Of a stretch of DNA of 64,000 nucleotides, positions 7,060 through 49,100 are shown piece after piece. How positions within the stretch are numbered: position 1 is the first letter of the stretch; each line of letters opens with the position of its first letter. Position numbers and translations under genes: made by a program. The DNA is from a virus (Duplodnaviria > Heunggongvirae > Uroviricota > Caudoviricetes), in IMG/VR virus record IMGVR_UViG_3300017747_002194, positions 1 through 64,000 of that record, one strand, 5' to 3'. The notes beneath the pieces are model-generated. The model saw only the letters and a program-made list of their open reading frames with translations, was not told where the DNA came from and did no database searches.

Positions 7060-7132
7060 TAGGAAGTAGTTCAGGAGTAGAGCACCAGATTCATAACCTG
7101 GGGGTTCAGTGGTTCGATTCCACTCTTCCTGA
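7060..7132 (+). tRNA. tRNA-Met/Ile2 (anticodon CAU)
   Basis: Manual fold gives acceptor 7060-7066 / 7125-7131 (U1-G72), D-stem gttc/gagc, anticodon stem ccaga/cctgg around loop uuCAUaa, T-arm agtgg-ttcgatt-ccact, and discriminator A. Confidence 0.6.
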
Positions 7133-7137
7133 CAACA

Positions 7138-21223: not shown

Positions 21224-21832
21224 ATGATTGAACAAATTAGTGTAGACTTGAACAAATTATATACTAATAAACTCAAGATTGAAGATTATTTCATATTATT
21301 TTGTTTAGTCCACAATGATGAGGATATGCTGATGAAATATATAGACACTTGTGGTCGTATAGAAACTAGCATATTCCACAGATTAAGAGATTCTGGATTT
21401 ATTATCCTTACAGATGATAACAATATTCTTTTTAATGAGATTAAAGTAACAGAACAGGCTAAAAATTTATTTAATATTCAAGACAATGCAAAGTTTGAAG
21501 AATTATTTAAAGAACTGCTGTCTACTTATCCAAAATCAGTAAAAAGATTAACAGGTGGTAGAAGACCATTACATAATGACTTGGCTAGATGTAAAAAACT
21601 TTATAAAATAACTATATTTGATAGAGTGTCGTCTTCGTTAAACACAACTTTACACCAAAACATTTTATTATGTGTGCAAAAATACTACAATGATCATCGT
21701 AGGGATAATAAAGAGGAATTTATGCAACTTTTAGTTACATTTCTATCTCAAAGAACTTGGGAACAATATCTAGAAGATATTAACAATTTTACAGAAGTCA
21801 CTAAAAATCTAGGAAATAATGACGCCATTTGA
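21224..21832 (+). CDS. hypothetical protein
   Basis: 202 aa. Confidence 0.55.
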   Translation: MIEQISVDLNKLYTNKLKIEDYFILFCLVHNDEDMLMKYIDTCGRIETSIFHRLRDSGFIILTDDNNILFNEIKVTEQAKNLFNIQDNAKFEELFKELLSTYPKSVKRLTGGRRPLHNDLARCKKLYKITIFDRVSSSLNTTLHQNILLCVQKYYNDHRRDNKEEFMQLLVTFLSQRTWEQYLEDINNFTEVTKNLGNNDAI

Positions 21833-22877
21833 GAAAAGGATTTTACAGGGATTAGAAGGCGCTTATCAAGGGTTGAAGAATGGTTTCAATAGAATTAATA
21901 AGTATATCTATAACACACAGAGAGGCTGTTACACCTTATTAGGTGGTTTATCAGGTAGTTCTAAAACTACACTGTGTGATTTTATAGTATTAAATGGTAT
22001 TCAAGATGCTAAAGCAAAAGGAATCCCTATTAATATTACTTATTACTCTTGGGAAATTGATGAAACTAGCAAAAGAGCAAATTGGTTATCCATTATGATT
22101 TATAATAAGTATGGTAGAGTAATATCTCCACAACTTATTAAAGGTATGGGTGACTTAAGGATGACTCCAGAGGAATTAGAAATAGTTCAATCTGAGTTAC
22201 CTGAATTAGAAGAAATATTCTCTAAAATTAAATGGCATTGGACACCACTCAATCCTACAGGATTATATCATGAGTGGTGGTCTACAATGTCAGCTAAAGG
22301 GACTTTTAAGAAAGAACCTTATATTGATGAGAATGGAGAATCTAAGGAAAGAATTATTAGTTGGACACCTGATAATAAAGAAGAATACAATATTGTTGTC
22401 TTAGATCATGCTAGTCTTCTAAAGTTTGAGCGTGGATTTACTCTTAAACAAAATATGGATAAAATGTCTGAATATATTGTAGCTTGTAGAAATATGTTTA
22501 ATATGACATTTTTTATAGTACAACAATTTAATCAGTCTTTATCTAACATTGAGAGAGTAAAATATAGAGGTGTAGACCTTTCTCCAGAGCAAAATGATTT
22601 TAGAGACTCAGGTAACTTGTATATTGATGCAGATATAGTATTAGGATTATTAAATCCTTATAAAATGCAGTTGGAAACAAGTTTGACCTACAATATTAAT
22701 GTTGAAGGTAGTCCTTACAATCTTAAAGGTAAATATAGGTTACTTAAAGCTATTAAAAATAGATTAGGGGCCGATAATATCTCTATTGGTTTATACACTA
22801 AACCAGAAGCAGGATATTTTGAAGAATTACCTAAAGAGATGACATCAGAGGATTACGTAATGTACCAAAATAAATAA
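21819..22877 (+). CDS. DnaB-like replicative helicase (C-terminal RecA-like domain)
   Basis: Walker A GGLSGSSKTT, Walker B VVLDHASL, and QQFNQSLSNIERVKYRGVDLSPEQNDFRDSGNLYIDADIVLGL matching the DnaB QLSR...DLRESG.IEQDAD.V signature. Confidence 0.75.
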   Translation: MTPFEKRILQGLEGAYQGLKNGFNRINKYIYNTQRGCYTLLGGLSGSSKTTLCDFIVLNGIQDAKAKGIPINITYYSWEIDETSKRANWLSIMIYNKYGRVISPQLIKGMGDLRMTPEELEIVQSELPELEEIFSKIKWHWTPLNPTGLYHEWWSTMSAKGTFKKEPYIDENGESKERIISWTPDNKEEYNIVVLDHASLLKFERGFTLKQNMDKMSEYIVACRNMFNMTFFIVQQFNQSLSNIERVKYRGVDLSPEQNDFRDSGNLYIDADIVLGLLNPYKMQLETSLTYNINVEGSPYNLKGKYRLLKAIKNRLGADNISIGLYTKPEAGYFEELPKEMTSEDYVMYQNK

Positions 22878-22878
22878 T

Positions 22879-23124
22879 ATGGGAAGAATTATATTAGCGA
22901 TCGGAGAGCCAGGTACTGGTAAATCAAGAGCTATTTTAAATTTAGATGAGAATAAGACATTATTAGTTAAACCTAATAATAAAGAGCTTCCTTTTAGAGG
23001 AGGTGCTGTGAAATACAGTAAAGAAAAAGGTAATGTAGTAAATTGTTCTACATTTCCAGATTTGAAAGTTATATTAACTAAAGCTAATGAAGGTACTAAA
23101 TTTAGTACAATCGTGATAGAGGAT
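22879..23124 (+). CDS. exon 1 of a P-loop ATPase of AAA_24 (Sak4-like) type
   Basis: Walker A GEPGTGKS and Walker B STIVIED, then an immediate in-frame stop at the proposed intron start. Confidence 0.55.
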
Positions 23125-24130
23125 TAAGAAAATAATATTAAAAATAAATTTGCATAGTATTAAAATTATTTGTATATTTAATGAGTTAATAACTCGAATA
23201 TATAAATATGGAAAATAAAATTAAAAAATTAAATAAAGAAGGAAAAACAGATGTAGAAATTTCAAATATTCTAAATTTACCTTACTATAAAATAGGTAGA
23301 ATTAGAAAAAAATTACAATTATCTGTAAATTATAAACATGAAAATCTTTATATGTCTTCTCAACAAGAAGAAGCATTTATTGGTACATTATTAGGAGATG
23401 CTACTTTAGTCTTTAAAACAAAAGGTTCTAGATACCCATCATTTCAATTTTCTCATACAGAAAAACAAAAAGAATACTTTAATTATAAAGTGAATCTTTT
23501 TAAAACTCTTATGGGTAAACCTAAAATACATCTTTTAAAATCTAAATTTACCTCAGAAGAAGGTGTTTTAGTATATGGAATTCAAAGTTATAATATACCA
23601 TCTTTACTTAAATATAGAAAAATATTTTATCCAAATAATAAAAAGATTATACCCATTGATTTTATAAAAGATAAATTTTCTGAATTAAGTTTAGCTCTTT
23701 TAATTTATGATGATGGGTGTAAAGATAATTTGAATTATAAATTATCAACTTATTGTTTTGAAAGAGAAAATGTTTTAGAATTTTCCAAATTTCTTTATGA
23801 AAAATTTAATATTAAATCAACAGTACATCAAAATAGTGTTTTATATTTTAGTAGACAAGCTACAGAAATTATAACTAAAATACTACAAAAATATCCTGTT
23901 AAAAACATGCAATATAAAATAATAGTGTAAGTCCTCTTTAAATTCTTTTAAAACTGGAAAGTCTTTTAACTAAGATAATCAGTTACCAAGCTAGTGAATG
24001 GTGTAATAGTAGCTAGAAAGGTTCAACGACTAGTAGATAGGAACCTAACCAAATCTACCACGAAATAAGAACATCTAATATTAGATGATGAGATAGTCTG
24101 AACTGCAAATATAAATAGACTAAATTGCAG
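23125..24130 (+). mobile_element. group I intron carrying a LAGLIDADG homing endonuclease ORF
   Basis: Intron core elements R-like GTTCAACGACTAGTAGA (about 24020) and S-like GAGATAGTCTGAAC (about 24089), plus a P9-like hairpin ctgcaa...ttgcag ending in G24130. Exon 1 ends in U, and the frames rejoin at 24131 to give ...VIED|NIGIKS.... Confidence 0.5.
23208..23930 (+). CDS. LAGLIDADG homing endonuclease (intron-encoded)
   Basis: Motifs FIGTLLGDATL and ALLIYDDGCK. Confidence 0.85.
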   Translation: MENKIKKLNKEGKTDVEISNILNLPYYKIGRIRKKLQLSVNYKHENLYMSSQQEEAFIGTLLGDATLVFKTKGSRYPSFQFSHTEKQKEYFNYKVNLFKTLMGKPKIHLLKSKFTSEEGVLVYGIQSYNIPSLLKYRKIFYPNNKKIIPIDFIKDKFSELSLALLIYDDGCKDNLNYKLSTYCFERENVLEFSKFLYEKFNIKSTVHQNSVLYFSRQATEIITKILQKYPVKNMQYKIIV

Positions 24131-24589
24131 AATATAGGGATAAAGAGCCTTATAGATAACAAAATGTTCACACATTTCCTAACTAGTAGAGTTATGGCAG
24201 ATGCTAAGATCTCAGGATTTCAGAAATGGTCTGATTTAGCAGTTGATGTATTTCAAGGATTAATTAAAATTGAAGAGAAATTAAGAGATGATTTAAATGT
24301 AATTGTTATTGGTCATACAGAAAGAAATACAGATGTAAATGGTAATAGTATTATCACTTTACAAACAGTTGGTAAATTATTGGATAACCAAATTAAAATA
24401 CCTTCGTATTTCACCTATGTATTACATTCTGATGTAAAAGAAGTGAATGGAAAGATGGAATATTCATTTTTAACAAATAGTGATGGTCTTAGATTAGCTA
24501 AATCTCCTGAAGGGTGTTTAGATAAGTTTGAACCAAATGATTATGCGTTAATCTTGAGTAAAATACACAAATATCAATTAGGAGAGTAA
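24131..24589 (+). CDS. exon 2 of the AAA_24-like ATPase
   Basis: The frame continues from exon 1, and the track 'start' at 24125 is a TTG. The joined product of about 235 aa has the AAA_24-like layout (..VIVIGHTERN..). Confidence 0.45.
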   Translation, partial: NIGIKSLIDNKMFTHFLTSRVMADAKISGFQKWSDLAVDVFQGLIKIEEKLRDDLNVIVIGHTERNTDVNGNSIITLQTVGKLLDNQIKIPSYFTYVLHSDVKEVNGKMEYSFLTNSDGLRLAKSPEGCLDKFEPNDYALILSKIHKYQLGE

Positions 24590-24628: not shown

Positions 24629-25222
24629 ATGTTCGATTTTCAAAATGCTGAGGTATCAAAAGGTAACTATAAAGAAACTATTAAACCAGGAATTCATATT
24701 GTTAAAGTTTCTAAAATTGAGAATGGTGTAAGCTCTAAAGCTGGAGCACCACAAATTACTATTACAGTAGAAGACAATTCAGGAGCTGAATTAGCAAATA
24801 TCTATTCATTAAATACTATTGTAAGTCCAGGTAAAAAAATGTCTGGATGGGATGTAACTAAAAATGCTATTTTATCAATAGTAGCTGCTGCTCATTCTTT
24901 AGATGAGACTTCTGCTAAAGCTAAAATGCCTAATGCTAAATCAGCTGAGGAATTAGCTCAAAAATTATCTATTTTATTAGCAGGTAAAGAGTTCCGTTTA
25001 AAAGTAGTAGGTGAGGAGAAAATCTCTCAAAAAGGTACTAAATATGTAGCTTCTTCATTTGGTAATGGAGTATTCTGTGAGTCTAAATCAGTTTCTGAAA
25101 CAGACAGCAAGTTATTCTTTAATGCTGAAAAGAATATTAAAAAGTTAGCAGTTGAACCAGCTGGTAACTCAGATGCCCAATCAGCATTCTCTAGCCCAGC
25201 TAGTGAAGTTAACTTTGGATAG
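24629..25222 (+). CDS. hypothetical protein, possibly an ssDNA-binding partner of the Sak4-like ATPase
   Basis: Position directly after the AAA_24 gene; no clear OB-fold or SSB motif seen. Confidence 0.3.
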   Translation: MFDFQNAEVSKGNYKETIKPGIHIVKVSKIENGVSSKAGAPQITITVEDNSGAELANIYSLNTIVSPGKKMSGWDVTKNAILSIVAAAHSLDETSAKAKMPNAKSAEELAQKLSILLAGKEFRLKVVGEEKISQKGTKYVASSFGNGVFCESKSVSETDSKLFFNAEKNIKKLAVEPAGNSDAQSAFSSPASEVNFG

Positions 25223-37145: not shown

Positions 37146-40100
37146 TTAACATTTAAATGGATTTTTACCATCATTAACTATTTTATTAACATCATCTCTT
37201 AAAGATTTAAAATCTTCAAAAGTAGTTGCATTTTTAAATCTTGTATTCATAATAGATCTTTCTTCTGGAGAAAGAATTGCATCAATTTTCTCTTTATTAT
37301 TTTTAACCAATTCTGTAACTACTACTTTCATTAGATTAGTTTTAGGATCAGCTACCGGCTGTGCTTTAGTTGTATTACCCATAAGAGCTTTCATTTTAGC
37401 AAGAGTAGCTTTTTCTTCCTCCAAAGATACTTCTTTTTCTTCAGATTCCAAAGAATTATCATCAATAATTTCAGCTTTTGTAGCATTAGGTACATTAGTA
37501 TCTTCAGTTCCTAAAGCTTTTTTAAACATGCTCATAATATCAGAAGCAGATTTACCACTTTTAGCTTTTTCCCCTAAATTTATAGGTGTAGATTCTTCAG
37601 TTTTATCAACTTCTTCAGGAGTTACTTGATCAAATAAAGCTTTAGCTGTATCATAAGTTCCTGGGAAATACACACTAACTCCTTTCATACCTATTTGTTC
37701 TAAAGGTTTGTAAGTAGCTTTTTCACCAACACCATAAGGATGTATTGTATTATGCGTATGACCATTAGTAGCATCAATATAATTTAAAAAATCATCTTGC
37801 TTACTAACAAAACCTGTAGCTTTATTTGTAAAAGACTCTAATTCAAAGAATTGATACTCTTCACCTATTCTCACTTTAATAAATTGTGGGAATTTAAAAG
37901 TAGGTTGTGCTGAATTTTCATTCTTAGTTTTCAGCATTACAGGGAAAACTTCTTTTAATTTACCCTTACTATCTTTAAATTCTTGCTCAGAATTAGTACT
38001 AACTTCAAATACTAATCTATCTCCATTCATTCTAATAGGTCCTTTCTCAGTAACATTAATCTTATGAGTATGCATAGCAGCATATGTAGTATTTACATCT
38101 GTGATATACATTTTTCTAAAATTATAAGCAGCTTGACCAAAATCAATACTTGGATTTTTAGCAACTAAACCTTTAACTAAATCATCTAAAGTTTCTGAAT
38201 ACTTATTAAACATATTCACCGGTAAATATTTAGCTACACTGTTATTCTTAAAAGTCATGTTATCTTTAACCATTAAATAGCTAAGCATATTATCTACAAA
38301 GTTTCTAGGAGTTAATCCAGCTTCATTTAATTGAGTTTGGTTATCATACCATAAAGATTTGACAGAATCTATTAATAAAGAAATAGTTTCATTACTTTCT
38401 TTTACAAAAGATTTTGTATCAATAATATTTTCTTTAATAGTAAAGTATTTTACAATATAGTTATCTTTAGTAGTAGGATTTGATTTTAATAATTCTAATT
38501 GACTAACTAAGTTAACTTGTCCTTCTTTATTTAATTCATTAAAAATTAAACCTAAATTTAAAGAGTCTAATCTCTTTTGAATAGCTTGCTTATTAACTTC
38601 TTTAGTATTTACATCATCTCTAAGTTTCTCTAAGTCATTAACATAAGATTTCACAGATAGGTAACCTAAAAATTCTCTACTTAACTCAGCAACATTATCC
38701 ACCACATTAGTAAATCTATCTTGTAAACTATCAAATAACTTACTAAACTCTTTAGTGAATAATTCAGTTTGTTCAATAAATATTTTTTGACCTACATCAG
38801 TACTAACTTGTAAAGCACGTTTAATATTTCCTAAAGTATTAGCATCATCTTTTAGTATTGGTAAAATGTCGATATGCGCTTGACCTACAGCTAATCCTCT
38901 GTCAGCAGTATTTAACGCTTTATTTAATTCAAAAGTGTCAATAGCTTTATGTAATTTTTGATTCATTACAGTAAATGAAGTTTCTAAACCTTGATTTAAA
39001 GTTAAGAAAGTATTTAATGTAGCCATTACATTATACTGCTCTTGGATTTTAACAAATTGATTTAAAGCTTGATATTGTACTTCTAAAGCTGTAGAATTAT
39101 TACTATCTCCTAATTCATTTTTAGTAAACTCTTTACCTAATAAAATATTTTCAATTTGTTCTAAAGTAACTTCTGTTAATTCAGGATCAATTTTAGATAT
39201 TGTTCTATTTACAGCTTCAATTTTATCTTTAGTAATCTCTCCATTATTTTCTAAAGAAACAATAGCAGAAGCTTGAGCATTAGCCTTGTTAAAAGATTCT
39301 TCAATCTCAGTTTTAACTTTAGATACTAAAGCTTTTTGAATTTTACCATACTCTTGAATAATAGGTAAGTTAATAAACTTAACAGCATTTTCAAAACTCA
39401 TACCTTGCATGATAAGTTCTGTAAATCCTCCTAATAATTCAAACTGAATATTTAATTCACCAGCAATAGGATCTTTAGCATTATCTGTAAATACGTTTAA
39501 TAAAATATTTAAGTTATTAGCTATACGCTCATTTTGTTTATTTGTGGCAGAATATGAACCACCAGTCTCACCAGCTATCTCAAATCTAAAAGCATCTTCA
39601 TTAAATTTAACTACTTTATCTCCAACTTTAGACATTAAAAAGGCAAACTGTTGGATCTTATTAGCTGCAATACCAATACCGTCTTTACCTGCAGAGTTTT
39701 TACTATTAGCATCATACTTACCATTAATATCAGAAGCTGACTTATTTTTTTGAGAAATAGTAGATTGTGTAGATTTAATAAAACCTTCAGATTTCAATTT
39801 AGGAACTAAAGCTTTTAATACATCTGTAGATGTAGTATTATTAGCAATCTCAGCGGTATGATTATTAGCTAACATCTTAATCATATTATCTAATGCTATA
39901 TTACTATTAACAGCATTAGGTTTTTTACCTTTATCAACAAAAGATTTTTCTGTATAAGGTAAATCATATTTTTTAGATACTTGCTCGTAATAAGTTTTTT
40001 CAATTATAGCTAACTCTCCTTTTAATCCTTGACTAGCTAAGATTAAAGGTTGTTTTTCTTTCTTACCAACTTCATCAATTTCTTTATCTATTTGCTTAAC

Positions 40101-43100
40101 AGCTTTTTTAATAGAGTTATATCTAAAGTCATTTTTTAATAATTGATTATAGTCTCTACTAAAATCTTTATCATAATTTAAATTATAAAATTTAAAAGCC
40201 TCAAAAGCTTCTTGAAGAGTTTTTTCTGTACCATATTTAATAGGAACAGTAGGAGCTTCTTTTCTATACCAGAAATATGACATTTGAATAAACTCAGAGT
40301 CAATATCAAAATCGGCTCCTGATAAGTGAACAATTTCTGATGGAAAAATACCTATACCGTTGTAATAATCTGGTAATAAACTAACTACTTTTAAAGACAT
40401 TGCTGATTGTTTATCACCTGTAGGAATACGGTATCCTAACATTTTTAAAACCTCAGTCATTTCAGGAGTAATAGTATCTCCTATTTTTAATCCATGTCTA
40501 GTTAATATAGTTTGTGATAACATACACTCACTATATTTTAAATCACCTTCTTCTACATTATATCTTAATGAAGACTCTTCGTATTTAGTAGTATCATTAT
40601 ATTTAGCAGGATCTTTAATTAAAGTATGGTGAGAAATAACTTCACCAGTTACTTTATCTCTAACAACTTTAACACCAGCATCACTAGCTAAAGATACTTT
40701 ATCTCCATTTACTTTTTGATTTAATACACCTTTACTAAAATAAGACAAAATAACTTGTTCAGCTTTAGTAATCATTTGAACCATGTTGTAGTTTAAAGGA
40801 GTATCAAAAAACTCTAATAATTGTTCATCAGCTCCACTAGCTGCTAAAGATCTTTTAACAACTTCATCTAATTGAGTTTTATCAATATTACCATCTGTAC
40901 CAACTTCTTTAATTACACGCATAGCACGTTTAAAAGAAGTATCTCTAGTATCAGCAATAGCTTCATTATACTTCTTTCTAATATCTCCTAATTTAACTCC
41001 ATTAACTACTTCATTATCTTTTAATTCAGAAGCAATTAAAGTTAAAATCTGACTACCAGTAACAATTTCTTTTTTACCAGTAGGAGTTTCTACTTGTAAA
41101 CGTTTATTAGAATTATATACTTTGAATCTAGATTTACTTAAATCTAAATCATCAGCTTGACTATCTTGAGGACTTCTTGTAGCTCCTTTAGATGCAGATT
41201 CTACAGCTAAATGATCTACTTCATGTAAATCCATATTATTGGCTAAATTATGCCAATACTTCATACCTGGTACAGGTTTATATAATTTAGTTAATTCTCT
41301 TACAGTGTTTCTATATTCTACAGATTCATAATCATCCTTAATCATTAAATCAAATATTTTATCTGTAAGTTCTGTAAACTTATCTACATCTTTATCTTCA
41401 ATGTATGAAATAGCACTTCTAATAAGTCCTAATTCAGACATTTTTAAATATTGTCCATTGATACCATCAAATACAATAGTCTTTTTAGAGTTTAAAGAAG
41501 CTAATGCTTCAGATAATGCTTTTTGAGCTTTATCTCCAATATTAACATTTCTAACAACTTTACCATCTACTTTCTTAGTAAATTGAATAATATCTTTATA
41601 AGTCTTTCTAGTCGCACCATCAACTCTACCTAATCTAAAAGCACCCATCATTAAATGGTACTGTGAAGAATAGGACATAGCGTCATTTGATGTATAACTA
41701 GCTATTTGATCTTCAGTTAAATTTAATACTTTACCATCTTCATCAGTAACTTTAGTTAATTTACCAGAAGCATCAAATTCAGGTTTTACTCTAACTAACT
41801 TATTATTAATTATTACAGTAGAAGTATATAAATTAATATCTTTAATAATAGCAGAGTTATGCGTACCTCTTCCATAATCTGGACCAGAAGCCATAGCTCC
41901 TTTATTACGTTTAGAAATATCTACTTTATCTTTTCTAGATAAGGCATAATCACCATCCATTAATTCATTTAATGAATTAGACATAATATAATCATTTATA
42001 TAAAATGAATATAAGAATGGGTCATAAGTTTCTTCTCCACCTTTTAATTCAGTAGTTAAGAATAAATGTATCTTAGCATCTTTTAAAGTGTTTTTAAATT
42101 CTTTAAATGAAATTTGTAAATACTTTTGTACACCATTATTAATAGCATTGATTTGTTCAGAAGTTAATTCTTTAATATCTGGATCTAAAGCAGACTTAAC
42201 TAAATTTTCATAAGCTTCATTACCCATAGTGTCTCTTAAATACTGAAACTCTGTAAAATTAAAAGCTCTTCCTTTTAAAGAATTATTATACCCTTTTAAA
42301 TCTCCAGGTTTTTTATCAAAAGCTTTCTTCTCTCTCTTAATTCTTTCCCACTCTTTAGTTACTTGAGTTAAGAAATATTCTTTAATCTTAGCTTGACCGG
42401 CAACAGATTTAACATCTATTTTAGGTAATTCAGCTACATATCCTGTAGAAGAAGCCTCATTTTGTCTGAATAAGTATTTACCAGTTTCAGTATTTCCTTT
42501 ATTGTGATATAGTGTAAGAGCACTTAATAAATAAGTTCTAGCATCAAAACTACCAAAAGTAACACCATCTTTAGTTTTACCATTCTTAACAGTAGTATCT
42601 CTAAAACCACTTAAAATATTAATTTTTAAATCTTTTAATAATTCTTTATGGTTAGTAACCAAAAAGTTATTTCTTAAAAAGAAAGTATTTTTCTTTTCAA
42701 CTTCAGTCAAGCCTTCACCTTTTTCTACAGACTCCCAATAAGAATCTTTCTTATAAAGTTCAGCTCTAGATAACACATATGAAGGTTTAATAATTTCATA
42801 TACTTTTTTACCTTCAGCATTAGTAAATGAGAAGTTAGCAATAGACTCATCAAATTTAGCATTATTCTCAGCTAATTTTCCTAATCTACCTAATACACCA
42901 TTCTCCTCATCAAATAAAGCTTTTAAATCTTTATTAATAACATCAATAATACTAAAGCCATCATTTAAAGCAGCTGCTCCAAACATTTTAAAATCCATAG
43001 GTTCAGTAGTATCATAGATACTAATAAATGCTTTATCTTTAGCAATTAAATCATCAGGCTTTAAAATAGCCTTTTGTTTAGCTAAAGATATTTTAATGTA

Positions 43101-46100
43101 AATAGAAGTTAAAGTAATACCATTAGCATCTAATGCTTTTTTAATTTCATTAGAAGCTTTATCTAAAGATACTCTACCTTTATAATAATTATTAACTATT
43201 TTATCTACATTAGAAAAATTATGTTGGAATTCTTTTATAGACTTTTCTCTACTAATAAATGTTACTCTATTCTTCCATCTCTCTAAAGAGATTTTCTTAG
43301 CATCATTTTTATTAGCATTATTCCAAGTATTAGCTTTTACTTTAGTAGGTTTACCATCTTTATCTTTAATCCAAGACTCTCCAATTAACACATCAATTTG
43401 TGTAGCTTTAGAGTTTTTAAAATTAGTTAATAAAGCTCTAGTAATGTTACTAGCTTCTGGTGTAGTAGGATAAGTAGTTGTTCTAGTTTCAGGATCAAAA
43501 GTAATTCCTAAATCTTTAATAATTTGCTCATAGAAAGCTTTAATATTAGAGTTACTTTCTGAAGCATCATATAATTTAGCAATCATTCTTTCTTCAGATG
43601 TATCAGCTAATACACTAGTCAATCCATTATATAAAGCAACTTCGTCAACTCCAACCTCTCTATCTTCATTAGTAATTTCATCTCTCTCAATTCTAGTTGT
43701 GAAAGCTACATATTTTTTAATAGTTTGTGATAAAGAGTCATGTCCTCCAGATAAGAATGAATCTTGTGATCCAAAAGTATCTTTCATATGAACAGCTTCT
43801 AACCCACCTTCAGTCTCTTCATTAACTTCTTCTGAAGCTTTGAAATTAAAGATTGATAACTTATCACTAACAGCACTTCTTAATACTTCATATGGTCTAA
43901 GCTTAACATTGTTCATATTATTCTTATCATATAAATATTTTTCAGAAGCTATTTTATTAGCTAGTTCTTTAGCTAACTCAGGATTAGATGTAAATAAACT
44001 TTCACCATAAGCTACTCCTTTAGTATCTAAATCTTCAATTCTTTTATTAATAAAATAATCTAATAATTCTTCATCAGATTTTAATTGACGTTTACCGGCA
44101 GAATCTTTTTCTTCTGAATAAGCATATTCATGTAAAGTAGGATCTCCTGTTTTAGCTTTATAGATTTGAATAGCAAAGAAGTTAATAATTTTTCTAGAAT
44201 CTGAAGCATTGAAAAATCCATTCTCTTGAGAATTATTCTTCTTAGGTAATAATTTAAATACAGTATCATTCTCTCCAAAATAAGTATTGGTAATTTGTTC
44301 AGCATTAGCAAATTTACCCTTTAGAATGTTATCAAATAACATATCTAATTCAGTCCCAATATTAAATAACTCTTTAAAGAAATTTTTAATCTTAAAGAAT
44401 AATTGTTTTAAAATATTACTAGTCTTTTCTTGATTTTTATTCATAGAGTAATCCATGAATTTATCAGCCATAAATTCTTCTAATACTAAACTCTCTAATT
44501 CCTCTTTAGATTTATTAGTATAGTTAGCAACAGTACCTCTTAATTTATCAACCTCTTCTTGTAAGTTTTTACCAGATTTTGTAAATTCTGAATAAGCCGC
44601 AGCATAATACTTTTCAATTTGAGCATCAGTTAACATTGTTCTGAATACAGCATGGAAAGCCTCATGATAAGCTGTACCTGGCTTACCTTTAGTTTTATTT
44701 AAGTAAATAACTTTGTTTTTAAATGCTCCATAAGGAATACCTTTAACTTTTAAGTTATTTGCAATAGTTTTAATGTCTTCAATAGATATAAATCTAGGAA
44801 GAATTTTTTGAATTTCATCAAGCTCTGCTTGAGTTATACCAGTAGACTCTTCTAATCCAATAGAAAATACTGGATCAGGATCAGATTCTTCATTAGTGTT
44901 TTGTTGTTGTTGATTTAATAAATCCTTAAAAGAAGTAGCTTCTTTTTGAGCTTGCTTTAATTTAGCAAGAATACTAGTAGCTTGCTCTTGCTCTTTAGTA
45001 TCTTCTTCTAAAGCAGCTAGTTCTGCATCATATTGTTTTAAAAAATCTTCAAGAGTATACGTTACTCCATATTTTTTTCCAAGTCTTACTTGTTCTGCTG
45101 ATACTGTATTCTCTAAAGGAATAATACCATTTCCAGAAGATTTATCTTCTTTAGAATATTCTACCTTTTCAAAGTTTTCAATATCCTCAACTAAGTTTTT
45201 AGCTCCTAAACTAAGTAACAAATCTTTTTGAGAACCATACTTTTCATTAATATTTTTTAGTTCATCTAAACTAATATTTTGATAAGTACCTGTTTTATCA
45301 TTAAGTTTTGTTATCTCCCATCTAATATTTCCTCTAGCATTAGCTATATAAAAAGCAGCAAACTGTTTTCCTTTATAAGTAAATCTAAACATAGATTCCT
45401 CTTGGTCAAAAACTACATGAGTAATTTCTCCTTCATTAATTTTTATAGGAGTAGATAGTTGAGCACCTGCAATTTTTATAGCTTCTGATAAAGTAGGTAT
45501 TTCATTTTCTGGAGTAGGATTATCTATACCTGCTATTTTATTTTGAAGTTTGTACTTTACAGATTGTCTAACAGGTACATTTTTATCTTCTTGTCTTCTT
45601 CTTTCTATATCAACTTTAACATCTGTAATAGTTTCAACAGGTGTGTTAGCCACAGAAGTTGGTGTATTATTAGGTAAAGGTTTAGCTTCAGCATTAATTG
45701 AAAACTGTACTCCATATTTAAATAAACCTTTAGGATCCACATAAACTTCTAACTTATTCATATCTACTTCACCCTCAGGTGTTAAGAAAGATGAATATCT
45801 AATATTCTTAGCAGAGAATTTAACAGTTTTATTTACATTACTATCGGCTAATTGATCAATTACATAATCTGCAGATAATAATGAAGGGTGGATATTATTT
45901 AAAATATTTATTCCTTTACTATTTTTCATTTGTACAGGAGCTGAATAAGATCCTGAATTTTTATCTTTAGTTTGTAAAGTAAAATAAAAAGTATTTGTTT
46001 TTACTGAATAGTTTAATTGAAACTTTCTAACTACTCCTTTAACAGGTTCTAGTGCAAAGAAAATAGTCTCATTAAATTTATCAATAGCATCTTTAATAAC

Positions 46101-49100
46101 TTTAGAGTCACCTTGAGAATTAGTAATTGTATTAACTACTTCATCAAATGATTCTTGTGCATTAGGATTAGTTTTAGTTTTAACTTTAATAACATCTGTT
46201 CTACCATCAACAGTAACTTCAACATGTAAACCTTGAGCAATATCTGATTGTAATTCAGACATTTGATCTATAGCTTCTTCTATAGAAGGATCGTATTCTC
46301 TAACTTCAGTCTCACCTTCTAAATTAATATCAGTAATACCTTGCTTTAATTTAACAGTATCTGCTGTAGATACTAACATATCATAAGCTTCACCTAAAGT
46401 AGGTTTAGTATCATCTTTTAATAAAGTATTTAAATGTTTAGTTAAATCTAATTGAATAACACCAGCTTGATATAAATTATTAATCTCTTCTAAAGATTTA
46501 ATAGAACCATCGGGATTATAAAATAGAGCAGAGATTGCTTTTTGTTCAGGAGACCCACCATATTTAGAAATAGTAGAAATGTTAACATTTGCAATTTGTA
46601 ACATTACAAACCCATTAACTTCTATAAAATGTACAAGAGATTTATCTTCTTTTGTAGATTTAAAATATTCTAAAGCTTGTCTAACATCATCAAAAGAATC
46701 TAATTGATTTTCTTCATTAGTTCTATATTCACCAACTAAATGTTGTTTACCTTCTTTATCAGTATACAATACTTGAGTATCTCTAGCTTCTGCAGGAGTA
46801 TTTAACATCAAGTGTTTATCATTAGTAGTTTTAACTTCTTCCTTAGGTTTTTGTTGAACAGGTTGAGTAAATCCAAAAGTAGCTGCCGGAATATTACTTG
46901 TAACATCTGAAGCATCTACTGGAGGAATATTTGTATTATCTACAGGAGTTTCCGTAGGAGTAGTCTCTACAGGTTCTGTTGTAGTAGATGTAACAGGAGA
47001 AGTTTGAGTTTCTTCAGCTGGTGTAGGATTTTCTGTAGGTTTTTGTTCTTCATTTTCTATAACTTCTTGAACATCTTGTAAATCTTTAGCTTTAGCTAAA
47101 TCATAAAATTTACCCCATAAATTATCTGAAGCATTTAAAAATATAGCTTGATTTTTAGGATCTTTTAATGCATTATAAGTTAAAGTAAAATCAATTTCTC
47201 TAGATTTTAAATTTTCAACATCATCTAATGCTTTTAATATTTCTTCTTGATGTAATGGTGAAATACCATCAGCTTCAGTAATTTGTTTTTTAAATAGTTT
47301 TTTACCTGCAGCATCTAGTTCATTATAAGCTTTAGCAAAAGATTTAGGATCCATTGCACTATACATCAACATATTATGATCTTTAGACTCTTTATTTAAA
47401 AGAGCTTCAGCAAAACCTATTGAAGTAAAAGCTTCTGAGTTCTCTTGTAATATTTTAGTAACCTTAGCTGCAACTTCAGTCTTACGCTGTTTAGCATTTT
47501 CTAAACCTTGTGCAGAATAGATTAATAATTCTTTAACATCAGGATGTGCTTCAGGAAATAATTTAGTTACTTGATTATACGTTTCTTCTATTTTAGCTAG
47601 TTTATCTAGTCTATCTTGTACATACTTTTGTACAGCACCTTTACCAGTAAGTTGTTCGATACTAGCTTTATTTTCTACATTAACATCAATACCATAGACA
47701 TTTTTTAATTCTTCTACAGTAAGATCTTTGAAATTATTTAATTCTTCTTTAGTATCATTTAATTTACCATTTTGTAATCTGTTATAAGCATATGAAAATA
47801 ACATATCTTCATTAGCATTATGATAATTAAAATCATTATTCTCATCAATAGCTTGATCTTTAATTTCAGTAAGATTAGCAGATCTTACAAAATTATCTAC
47901 AAACTTTTTTCTTAAATCCTCTACTTTATATTTATTTAAAGACTCAACAGCTTGTGCTGTAAGTTTATCTTCCGGATTAGTGATAAATTCATCTTTAAAA
48001 GCTTTTCTACCTTTACCAACTAATACCATACCTGGAGAAGCAATTCCTGCAGATAATGCTCCAATAATACCAGCATGAATACCTTCTTGTGTAGTATAAG
48101 CTTCAGCCATACCTTTAGTAAAAGAATCTAAGAAGTTAGCTGCATTGGGATTATAATATTTATTTACATAGTAATCTTCAGCTGCTTTACCAATACCAAA
48201 TTGTAAAATCTCTTGATTACCTTCTGATAACATAGGTACACCTATCTTACCAGCTCTATATCCTAAATTAGCATACTTACCTTTTTCAACAGCTTTCCAA
48301 GTTTTAGTAGCTTCATCAAAAAAAGTGGTTTTATTAGCTATTTTAGCAAAATCATTAGTTTTATTTCCAAATAAAGCTTTACCAAAAGTTAACCAGTTGT
48401 CAGCCATAATAACTGGTAAGTTCATACCAAAGGCCATATCTCCTGCTTGCTCAGACATCATCTTAGCATAAGCTAATTCTCCTTCTGTCATAGACTTAGG
48501 AGAACCATCAGGATTGGTAGTTAACTTTAAATAAATACTTTTTTGAGCTTCACGAGCTTCAGCACCAGCTTCTCCTGTAGCTGACATTGCAGCTATAGTA
48601 CCTTGTCTAATACCATCTTTAATTTGCTTTTTAGTAGCAGCATTGGCTACAGATTTTAAACTTTCAGTAGCTCCTTCTTTAACCGCATTAGCAATCATTG
48701 TAGCTTCTTCAGCAGTCTGAGCTGCTCCCATAGCTTTACCAAATATTGAAAAAGCTTTAGACCAAGCACCTCCTGTTAAACCGGCTCCAATAGTAGTACC
48801 AGCTCCACCTAGAATATCTCTAAATAAAGTATTAGCATGCCAAAGTTTAGCTAATCCTTTATCAGTAGATTCTTCTTTATCAGAATAGAAAGGATTATTT
48901 TTATCAACAGCTTCATTGAACTTATCTAACTGTTGAGTTAAATCATTATTATAATATGAATTTAAAGAAGGATCCCATTTACCATTTTTATCAGTATGTG
49001 TTAATGCAGCGATAGTTCCATAGAATGGGTTAGCAATACCTTCAGCAGCAGTGCTTAAAGTTTTACCAAGCATATTAACTAAACCATTACCTGCTTTATC

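Follow-up and report, generated by a model that had tools for sequence, protein, structure and literature searches.

In the Sak4-like (AAA_24) ATPase gene of a crAss-like phage, the segment 23125..24166 is in all likelihood a mobile, T4-td-like (IA-type) group I intron inserted between codons 82 and 83. The DNA concerned, called the window below, comprises positions 1 to 64,000 of the IMG/VR virus record IMGVR_UViG_3300017747_002194 (Caudoviricetes). All coordinates refer to this stretch of 64,000 nucleotides (nt), and the intron and all its parts are on the plus strand. The intron is 1042 nt long, opens with an in-frame TAA stop codon (23125-27) and ends with G24166, limits that were obtained from intron-less homologues and from introns lacking an open reading frame (ORF) at the same site; the Rfam group I model RF00028 matches within it. 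It harbors a gene for a LAGLIDADG homing endonuclease. That a group I intron interrupts the ATPase gene had been proposed from the letters of the DNA alone; this original prediction is supported by the RF00028 match, by the intron-less and ORF-less alleles, by covariation, and by collinearity with the T4 td intron, while its 3' splice site had to be moved.

The interrupted ATPase gene

The plus-strand ORF 22879..23127 specifies 82 residues, ends with ...STIVIED and is closed by TAA, exactly as noted before. Its coding part, exon 1 (22879..23124, codons 1-82), includes a Walker A motif (GEPGTGKS) and a Walker B motif (IVIED), the latter directly in front of the stop codon, and matches positions 1-82 of PHROG 2872, annotated as 'Sak4-like ssDNA annealing protein' (ssDNA, single-stranded DNA), with E=8.9e-16. 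A downstream ORF ending at 24589 and containing ...IVIGHTERN... matches positions 83-211 of the same family. Since the two matches take consecutive parts of one family, the ATPase is split in two halves, and the assumption that the same protein resumes behind the gap was correct. Exon 2 (24167..24589) contains codons 83-222 (FTHFLTSRVM...KYQLGE) and the stop codon.

Neither exon alone reaches the Pfam cutoff for AAA_24, while the corrected join of 222 amino acids scores 35.1 bits (PF13479, cutoff 27, residues 4-179). For PHROG 2872, the joined product was scored only in a 234-amino-acid version with the 3' splice site at G24130, which gave E=2.8e-40 over profile positions 1-211 of 219. Single-stranded DNA annealing dependent on a single-stranded DNA-binding protein may be assumed for the predicted ATPase from the annotation of its family.

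Where the two halves meet was revealed by homologues of the joined product (165 matches, best 87% identity). The uninterrupted proteins have 222 residues, not 234, and read ...TIVIED/FTHFLT... at the junction (marked by a slash here and below). In the DNA of the intron-less loci L004-L007, the corresponding site is GAAGAT/TTTACACAT, and its wider surroundings in L004 are ATTGTTATTGAAGAT/TTTACACATTTTTTAAC. Group I introns follow a 5' exon that ends in U and terminate with G. With this rule and the intron-less alleles, a 5' splice site after U23124, the final base of exon 1, and a 3' splice site after G24166 are the sole solution. The 5' site agrees with the one originally predicted. The ligated junction is thus predicted to be ...GTGATAGAGGAT/TTCACACATTTCC..., or GAGGAU/UUCACA in RNA. 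Both exons are intact and are 87-92% identical to uninterrupted homologues.

Alleles at the insertion site in related viruses

When viral contigs were searched with the 22-nt sequence GATAAAGAGCCTTATAGATAAC, which is part of the 3' end of the gap, 16 loci were detected, several of which contain the ATPase gene with an interruption at the same position. Three of them, L008, L009 and L012, carry an insert of 1040 nt with the same 240-codon ORF at the same site. At this site, L017 and L023 contain an insert of 273 nt and L022 one of 243 nt, all without an ORF. Searched with a profile of the ATPase, viral contigs yielded 77 loci. The gene is uninterrupted and encodes about 222 amino acids in 58 of these, and the intron after codon 82 (site A) is present in seven, three with and four without the ORF. 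At a second position, after about codon 100 (site B), a different element of approximately 880 nt is found in 11-12 of the 77 loci. A metagenome scan for the junction GAGGATTTCACACAYTT was too unspecific to be of use, with a distant homologue encoded at one of the 120 loci listed (of at least 120), and it bears neither on spliced transcripts nor on precise loss of the intron.

All alleles with the site-A intron read GAGGAT/TTCACACA across the insertion point, and the intron-less ones mostly GARGAT/TTTACWCA. This difference in the flanks fits co-conversion or constraints imposed by helix P1, to judge from the sequences. The 273-nt form appears to be derived from an intron of the L008 type by loss of the ORF between two copies of ATAAATT. 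Compared in this way, the alleles show how a presumed homing element is gained, spreads and decays, as is usual for such elements.

Predicted structure of the intron RNA

In a permissive scan of the 1.2-kb stretch 23050..24250, RF00028 matched at 23875..24108 with 47.5 bits (E=1.1e-10). The 273-nt ORF-less intron at the same site, with a core 91.5% identical to that of the window, scored 58.8 bits and thus exceeded the gathering score of 50 bits.

An internal guide region (23925..23937) was recognized by reading the sequence and is conserved in all site-A introns. The 5' strand of P1 (23118..23125) consists of AGAGGAU of exon 1 and U23125 of the intron and pairs with 23930-37 (A-GUCCUC-U, with the guide GUCCUC at 23931-36), as read from the sequence and as found in a minimum free energy (MFE) fold of the ORF-deleted intron. 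U23124.G23931 is located within this P1 of 7-8 bp, and the intron terminates with G24166; the boundaries had been set independently from the intron-less alleles. For P10, a pairing of GUGUAA (23925-30) with UUCACAC of exon 2 (24167-73) is proposed, likewise by reading the sequence.

The catalytic core (23943..24098) was defined by RNAalifold, pair counts and the MFE fold. It comprises P3 (23943-47/24067-71), P4 (23952-57/23979-84), P5 (23961-65/23972-76), P6 (23986-87/24020-21), P6a (23991-95/24012-16), J6/7 (24022-27), P7 (24028-32/24094-98), P7.1 (24033-38/24053-58) and P8 (24072-77/24082-87). The R string GTTCAACGACTA at 24021-24032 and the S string GATAGTCTGAAC at 24091-24102, both named in the original prediction, are found as described. 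Two other near-matches to the R element in the window are at chance level. The core is followed by the P9 hairpin CUGCAA...UUGCAG (24103..24130) and by a 3' module (24133..24166) composed of a P9.1/P9.2-like terminal hairpin, UAUAGGG/CCUUAUA (24133-24154), and a 12-nt tail, GAUAACAAAAUG, ending with G24166. This module occurs once in the window; no further copies were found there, with none expected by chance.

Ten related introns, four from this site and six from other genes, were aligned for structural analysis. RNAalifold returned P3, P4, P5, P7.1, P8, P9 and the terminal hairpin, and compensatory changes were seen in 21 pairs. Pairs were then counted on a MAFFT alignment with a structure that was specified by hand and includes P6 and the P7 pseudoknot in addition; P6a and outer P4 were excluded from this covariation count, being misaligned between subgroups. 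The paired cells amounted to 96.7% over the ten introns, compared to 32.6-41.7% when the 3' partners were slid by one to three columns. Changes on both sides were observed in 22 of 46 pairs, and the covariation score was reached in none of 500 shuffles. By helix, covariation was detected in 5/5 pairs of P3, 4/5 of P7.1, 5/7 of P8 and 3/6 of P9. P6a was positioned by eye, guided by a compensatory change between the window and L022. When the ORF is removed from the window intron, the MFE fold contains P1, P4, P5, P6/P6a, P7, P7.1, P8, P9 and the terminal hairpin.

P2 is absent, the spacing between P1 and P3 being only 5 nt. The ORF-less intron of L022 starts with UAAGUGUAAGUCCUC and forms a P1 hairpin GAGGAUU-AAGUGUA-AGUCCUC with a loop of 7 nt. 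Relative to it, the window carries 797 nt, including the ORF, inserted between UAAG and UGUAAGUCCUC. Because this cassette lies between the two strands of P1, the endonuclease gene is placed in the P1 loop.

The LAGLIDADG endonuclease

The endonuclease gene (23208..23930), whose presence in the gap had been reported before, encodes 240 amino acids with two LAGLIDADG motifs, FIGTLLGDATL and LALLIYDDGCK, and an N-terminal extension. Its assignment is based on Pfam LAGLIDADG_2 (PF03161; 106.1 bits, cutoff 25, E=2.4e-30), on PHROG 11023 and on similarity to I-SceI. Entries for the latter are the closest solved structures (E=1.8e-11, residues 36-238), and the motifs align as GTLLGDA/GLILGDA and LIYDDG/WFMDDG (window enzyme first). 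From what is known of I-SceI, the Asp residues in the two motifs are presumably catalytic. The window enzyme is 85% identical to its counterpart in L008. The 67 codon differences between the two are 32 synonymous and 35 non-synonymous ones, and the synonymous share suggests purifying selection on the ORF.

The reading frame differs from that of exon 1, so the endonuclease needs its own translation. No convincing expression signal was found. The sequence at 23145-52, upstream of the ORF, resembling a Bacteroidota-type promoter (TAnnTTTG) was rejected, since 93 such sequences are present in the window and about 110 are expected by chance. At its other end, the stop codon of the ORF (23928-30) abuts the guide GUCCUC.

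Integrity of the intron and position of its 3' end

Several observations weigh against a functional group I intron as described above. The Infernal search proposed with the original prediction did produce a match, but its 47.5 bits are below the RF00028 gathering score of 50 bits, and a whole-window Rfam scan at gathering scores detected a tRNA only and not the intron. P7 is paired in all ten introns without any variation, and in the terminal hairpin only one side varies, so that both are compatible with pairing and have no compensatory support. For the ORF-deleted intron, the MFE z-score is no better than -1.69, a value to be expected from the very high AT content of this RNA. The putative P10 is weak and includes one bulged C, and the P1 loop of 806 nt may require folding help from a protein or a dependence of folding on translation. 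Splicing and endonuclease activity of the predicted intron are deduced from its anatomy.

A decaying intron is also to be considered, in which the ribozyme or the endonuclease of the window copy is inactive and the ATPase a pseudogene. The low RF00028 score would agree with decay, as would the ORF-less and intron-less alleles, which show gain and loss in this lineage. The score deficit stems from the ORF in the P1 loop, however, which disrupts the 5' part of the model by pulling it onto the final section of this ORF. Compared to relatives, the core has 89-94% identity and all helices intact, the endonuclease ORF has full length and both of its catalytic motifs, and the exons are conserved as stated above. 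Decay of the window copy is therefore improbable.

A free-standing endonuclease cassette without any splicing would be another way to explain the arrangement. Each half would then be translated on its own, exon 2 from ATG 24164 or TTG 24125, and the two products would combine to a functional ATPase, a situation known from some phage genes that are split by homing endonuclease genes. An ATG does precede exon 2 in the window, and a protein of 141 amino acids from exon 2 alone is what gene callers annotate (P0031, P0039). But the triplet before exon 2 is CTG, not ATG, in L008, L009 and L012, which argues against exon 2 being an independent gene with its own start, a possibility raised at the outset. 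Moreover, the two halves are separated by a complete, covarying group I core, and ORF-less inserts of 243-273 nt at the same site make sense only if they are removed from RNA. A split gene of this kind has a very small chance of being correct.

There is scarcely any likelihood left for the same intron with its 3' splice site at G24130, as originally placed. This site would yield the junction GAGGAU/AAUAUAGGG (GAGGAT/AATATAGGG in DNA) and a protein with 12 extra residues, NIGIKSLIDNKM. The hairpin 24103..24130 is indeed present and closed by G24130, but it represents P9 and not the intron end. Restoration of the frame could not separate the two sites, because G24130 and G24166 both keep it. The alignment shows that NIGIKSLIDNKM occurs in no uninterrupted homologue. 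By the homologue junction IVIED/FTHF, G24130 is 36 nt too early, and the AAA_24 score rises from 28.6 bits with the G24130 join to 35.1 bits with the G24166 join. These 36 nt are near-identical at the 3' ends of introns in unrelated genes (by eye dUTPase-like, polymerase-like and another ATPase), each followed by a different exon, and in an alignment with the T4 td intron they fall on its last hairpin and its AAUG end. The product, announced as 235 amino acids, would have 234 including NIGIKSLIDNKM with the join at G24130; the join at G24166 gives 222.

An intein was rejected because of the stop codon directly behind exon 1 and because the ORF uses a different frame.

Proposed model for splicing and homing

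For the group I intron 23125..24166, the following course of events is proposed. One precursor transcript would be produced, on which ribosomes would halt at the in-frame TAA directly after the 5' splice site. P1, with the U.G pair at the splice site, would arise from pairing of the guide GUCCUC with GAGGAU at the end of the exon, and guanosine bound by P7 would attack after U23124. Exon 2 would be aligned by GUGUAA via P10, and the terminal G24166 would be used in exon ligation. The outcome would be an mRNA encoding the ATPase of 222 amino acids. During co-infection, the endonuclease would cleave alleles without the intron in the conserved sequence encoding Walker B, and repair from an intron-bearing genome would copy the intron in. 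The patchy distribution of intron-bearing, ORF-less and intron-less alleles lends indirect support to such a cleavage of the intron-less allele.

Comparison with known introns and endonucleases

The self-splicing td intron of phage T4 (IA2, encoding I-TevI) resembles the window intron in that it interrupts a protein gene of a phage and has an in-frame stop codon immediately behind the 5' splice site. The 3' halves are collinear, with P7 (AACGACUA), a P7.1 hairpin, CNCGAAA, P3', P8, GAUAUAGUCUG, P9 (CUGCA...), a CCUUAU terminal hairpin and the AAUG end. Features of td beyond the alignment were taken from general knowledge of its structure. The introns differ in the ORF, which is of the GIY-YIG type and located in the P6a loop in td, but of the LAGLIDADG type and located in the P1 loop in the window. 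In addition, the window intron lacks P2 and has only one hairpin between P7 and P3'. A Blastn comparison of the intron with T4 detected no similarity. The single hairpin between P7 and P3', which aligns with td and covaries as given above, and the collinearity with td place the predicted intron in the IA type.

I-SceI, encoded by the intron in the mitochondrial large subunit rRNA gene of yeast, is likewise a monomeric LAGLIDADG enzyme with two motifs, both aligned, and has about 235 amino acids. The window enzyme differs by an extra N-terminal segment of about 35 residues and by its phage host. Its presumed target is the Walker B coding region of the ATPase gene.

ORFs of group I introns are normally located in peripheral loops, and phage introns mostly encode other endonuclease families (PMC3984707). 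A LAGLIDADG gene in a phage intron is thus less common but not new. An intron in the DNA polymerase gene of Bastillevirinae carries a LAGLIDADG_2 endonuclease of PHROG 11023 (PMC11878797), the same PHROG as that of the window enzyme, while host gene (DNA polymerase) and lineage (Bacillus phages) differ.

The closest parallels are found in the crAss-like phages themselves. According to Yutin et al. 2021 (PMC7886860), group I introns are dense in the core genes of these phages, among them those for MCP, PolB, primase and the AAA ATPase ATP_43b, and LAGLIDADG intron endonucleases are labelled there. Judged by synteny and AAA annotation, ATP_43b is probably the ATPase gene treated here. Phage group and synteny of the replication module are shared with the window; the exact splice sites, the secondary structure and the position of the ORF in P1 are not described in the parts of the paper considered here. 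In Blastn searches, the 3' part of the window intron was 75-95% identical to segments of crAssphage, cr1_1, cr50_1, cr111_1 and cr116_1. In crAssphage (Carjivirus communis), the matching segment lies at the annotated dUTPase/HNH intron. Mobile elements of this kind are already known from crAss-like phages, and the window intron is an ordinary case.

Further insertions and shared intron modules

The element at site B was seen in L172 (2118-3000), L183 (2119-3000), L173, L174, L176, L177, L181, L182, L184, L186 and L187. It contains an ORF of 189-194 codons with an HNH-like motif, HSLDRIDNLGNYEPNNCKW, recognized by eye and without a Pfam match, and an S-like sequence, GATATAGTC, near its 3' end. 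RF00028 matched the site-B element partially and in L172 only (34.7 bits). L172 and L174 possess both the site-A and the site-B intron, separated by an exon of 18 codons. A third insertion site (site C) was noticed in one of the 77 loci, L216 (3454-4386), a more distant homologue with 47% identity, where an element of 933 nt with a GIY-YIG/NUMOD ORF follows codon 152. In a permissive Rfam scan of relatives (E<=0.001), the remaining site-B loci gave no match, and neither did the site-C element or the helicase genes that are split in relatives, as described below.

The 3' module of the window intron, in general form UAUARGGAUAAAGAGCCUUAUAGAUAACAAAAUG (window 24133..24166), is near-invariant in L010, L011, L013-L016 and L018-L020. 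The introns sharing it have different P3-P8 cores and reside in different genes, by eye the three kinds named above and others. Conservation of this degree suggests functional constraint on the module or its exchange between introns. In L001 (25-370), a GC-rich, group-I-like core (AAUUGCGG..., GGUUCAACGACUAAC...) occupies the same site as the window intron. Its P9 equivalent is CUUAUGG/CCAUAAG; the AT-rich tail that follows is the same as in the window, and exon 2 is 91% identical. L001 is a low-coverage ENA contig starting with an Illumina adapter, and its core either belongs to a foreign intron in an AT-rich phage or results from chimeric assembly.

A more far-reaching interpretation, which appears rather unlikely as a whole, would join three elements. 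The ATPase gene would be a hotspot with at least three independent sites (codons 82, about 100, and 152), occupied by group I introns at A and B and by an uncharacterised 933-nt element at C, with a different endonuclease each (LAGLIDADG, HNH-like by eye, and GIY-YIG). The introns would be modular mosaics, their 3' module of terminal hairpin and GAUAACAAAAUG being present in at least six genes. Finally, the ORF of the window ends inside the guide sequence, so that ribosomes translating the endonuclease and the splice-site helices P1 and P10 would exclude one another, and expression of the enzyme would be coupled to splicing.

Phage context

The window belongs to a crAss-like phage and includes a replication module and large virion genes. 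The order DnaB-like helicase, Sak4-like ATPase, primase is that of Bacteroides phage PhiCrAssBcn18, and a virion protein of 1636 amino acids matches structural proteins of crAss-like and Flavobacterium phages. This uncultured relative has 28% GC; its ATPase is less than 35% identical to that of any deposited phage, and a Megablast search of the region against deposited phages gave no match.

The gene for the DnaB-like helicase (21819..22877, 352 amino acids) is intact in the window. In L004-L007 (L004:1971-3999), it is split into parts of 251 and 118 amino acids with a GIY-YIG ORF between them, and in PhiCrAssBcn18 (L144, OQ221553.1 80674-82907) by GIY-YIG and LAGLIDADG-like ORFs, the latter 30% identical to the window endonuclease. 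Directly downstream of the ATPase gene, an ORF of 197 codons (24629..25222) without a Pfam or PHROG match is located, and it follows the ATPase in L004-L007 as well. Sak4-type proteins work with a single-stranded DNA-binding protein (SSB), and the 197-codon ORF could encode a putative partner SSB. The tRNA found in the Rfam scan is a tRNA-Met (anticodon CAT; 7060..7133, RF00005, 48.9 bits) in the early/replication region. On the minus strand, an ORF of 4059 codons (37146..49328) had no PHROG match at E<=1e-8; it is flanked by ORFs of 1148, 718, 734 and 1636 codons.

Significance

For annotation, the ATPase gene should be given as join(22879..23124,24167..24589), encoding 222 amino acids, in place of the orphan fragment of 141 amino acids (P0031). 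The intron leaves current understanding unchanged. It adds one well-delimited case, with intron-less, ORF-less and ORF-bearing alleles, to the group I introns in replication genes of crAss-like phages. How homing endonuclease genes are gained and lost in cycles could be studied on this natural series of alleles, and the endonuclease is a candidate for an I-SceI-like enzyme with a new target.

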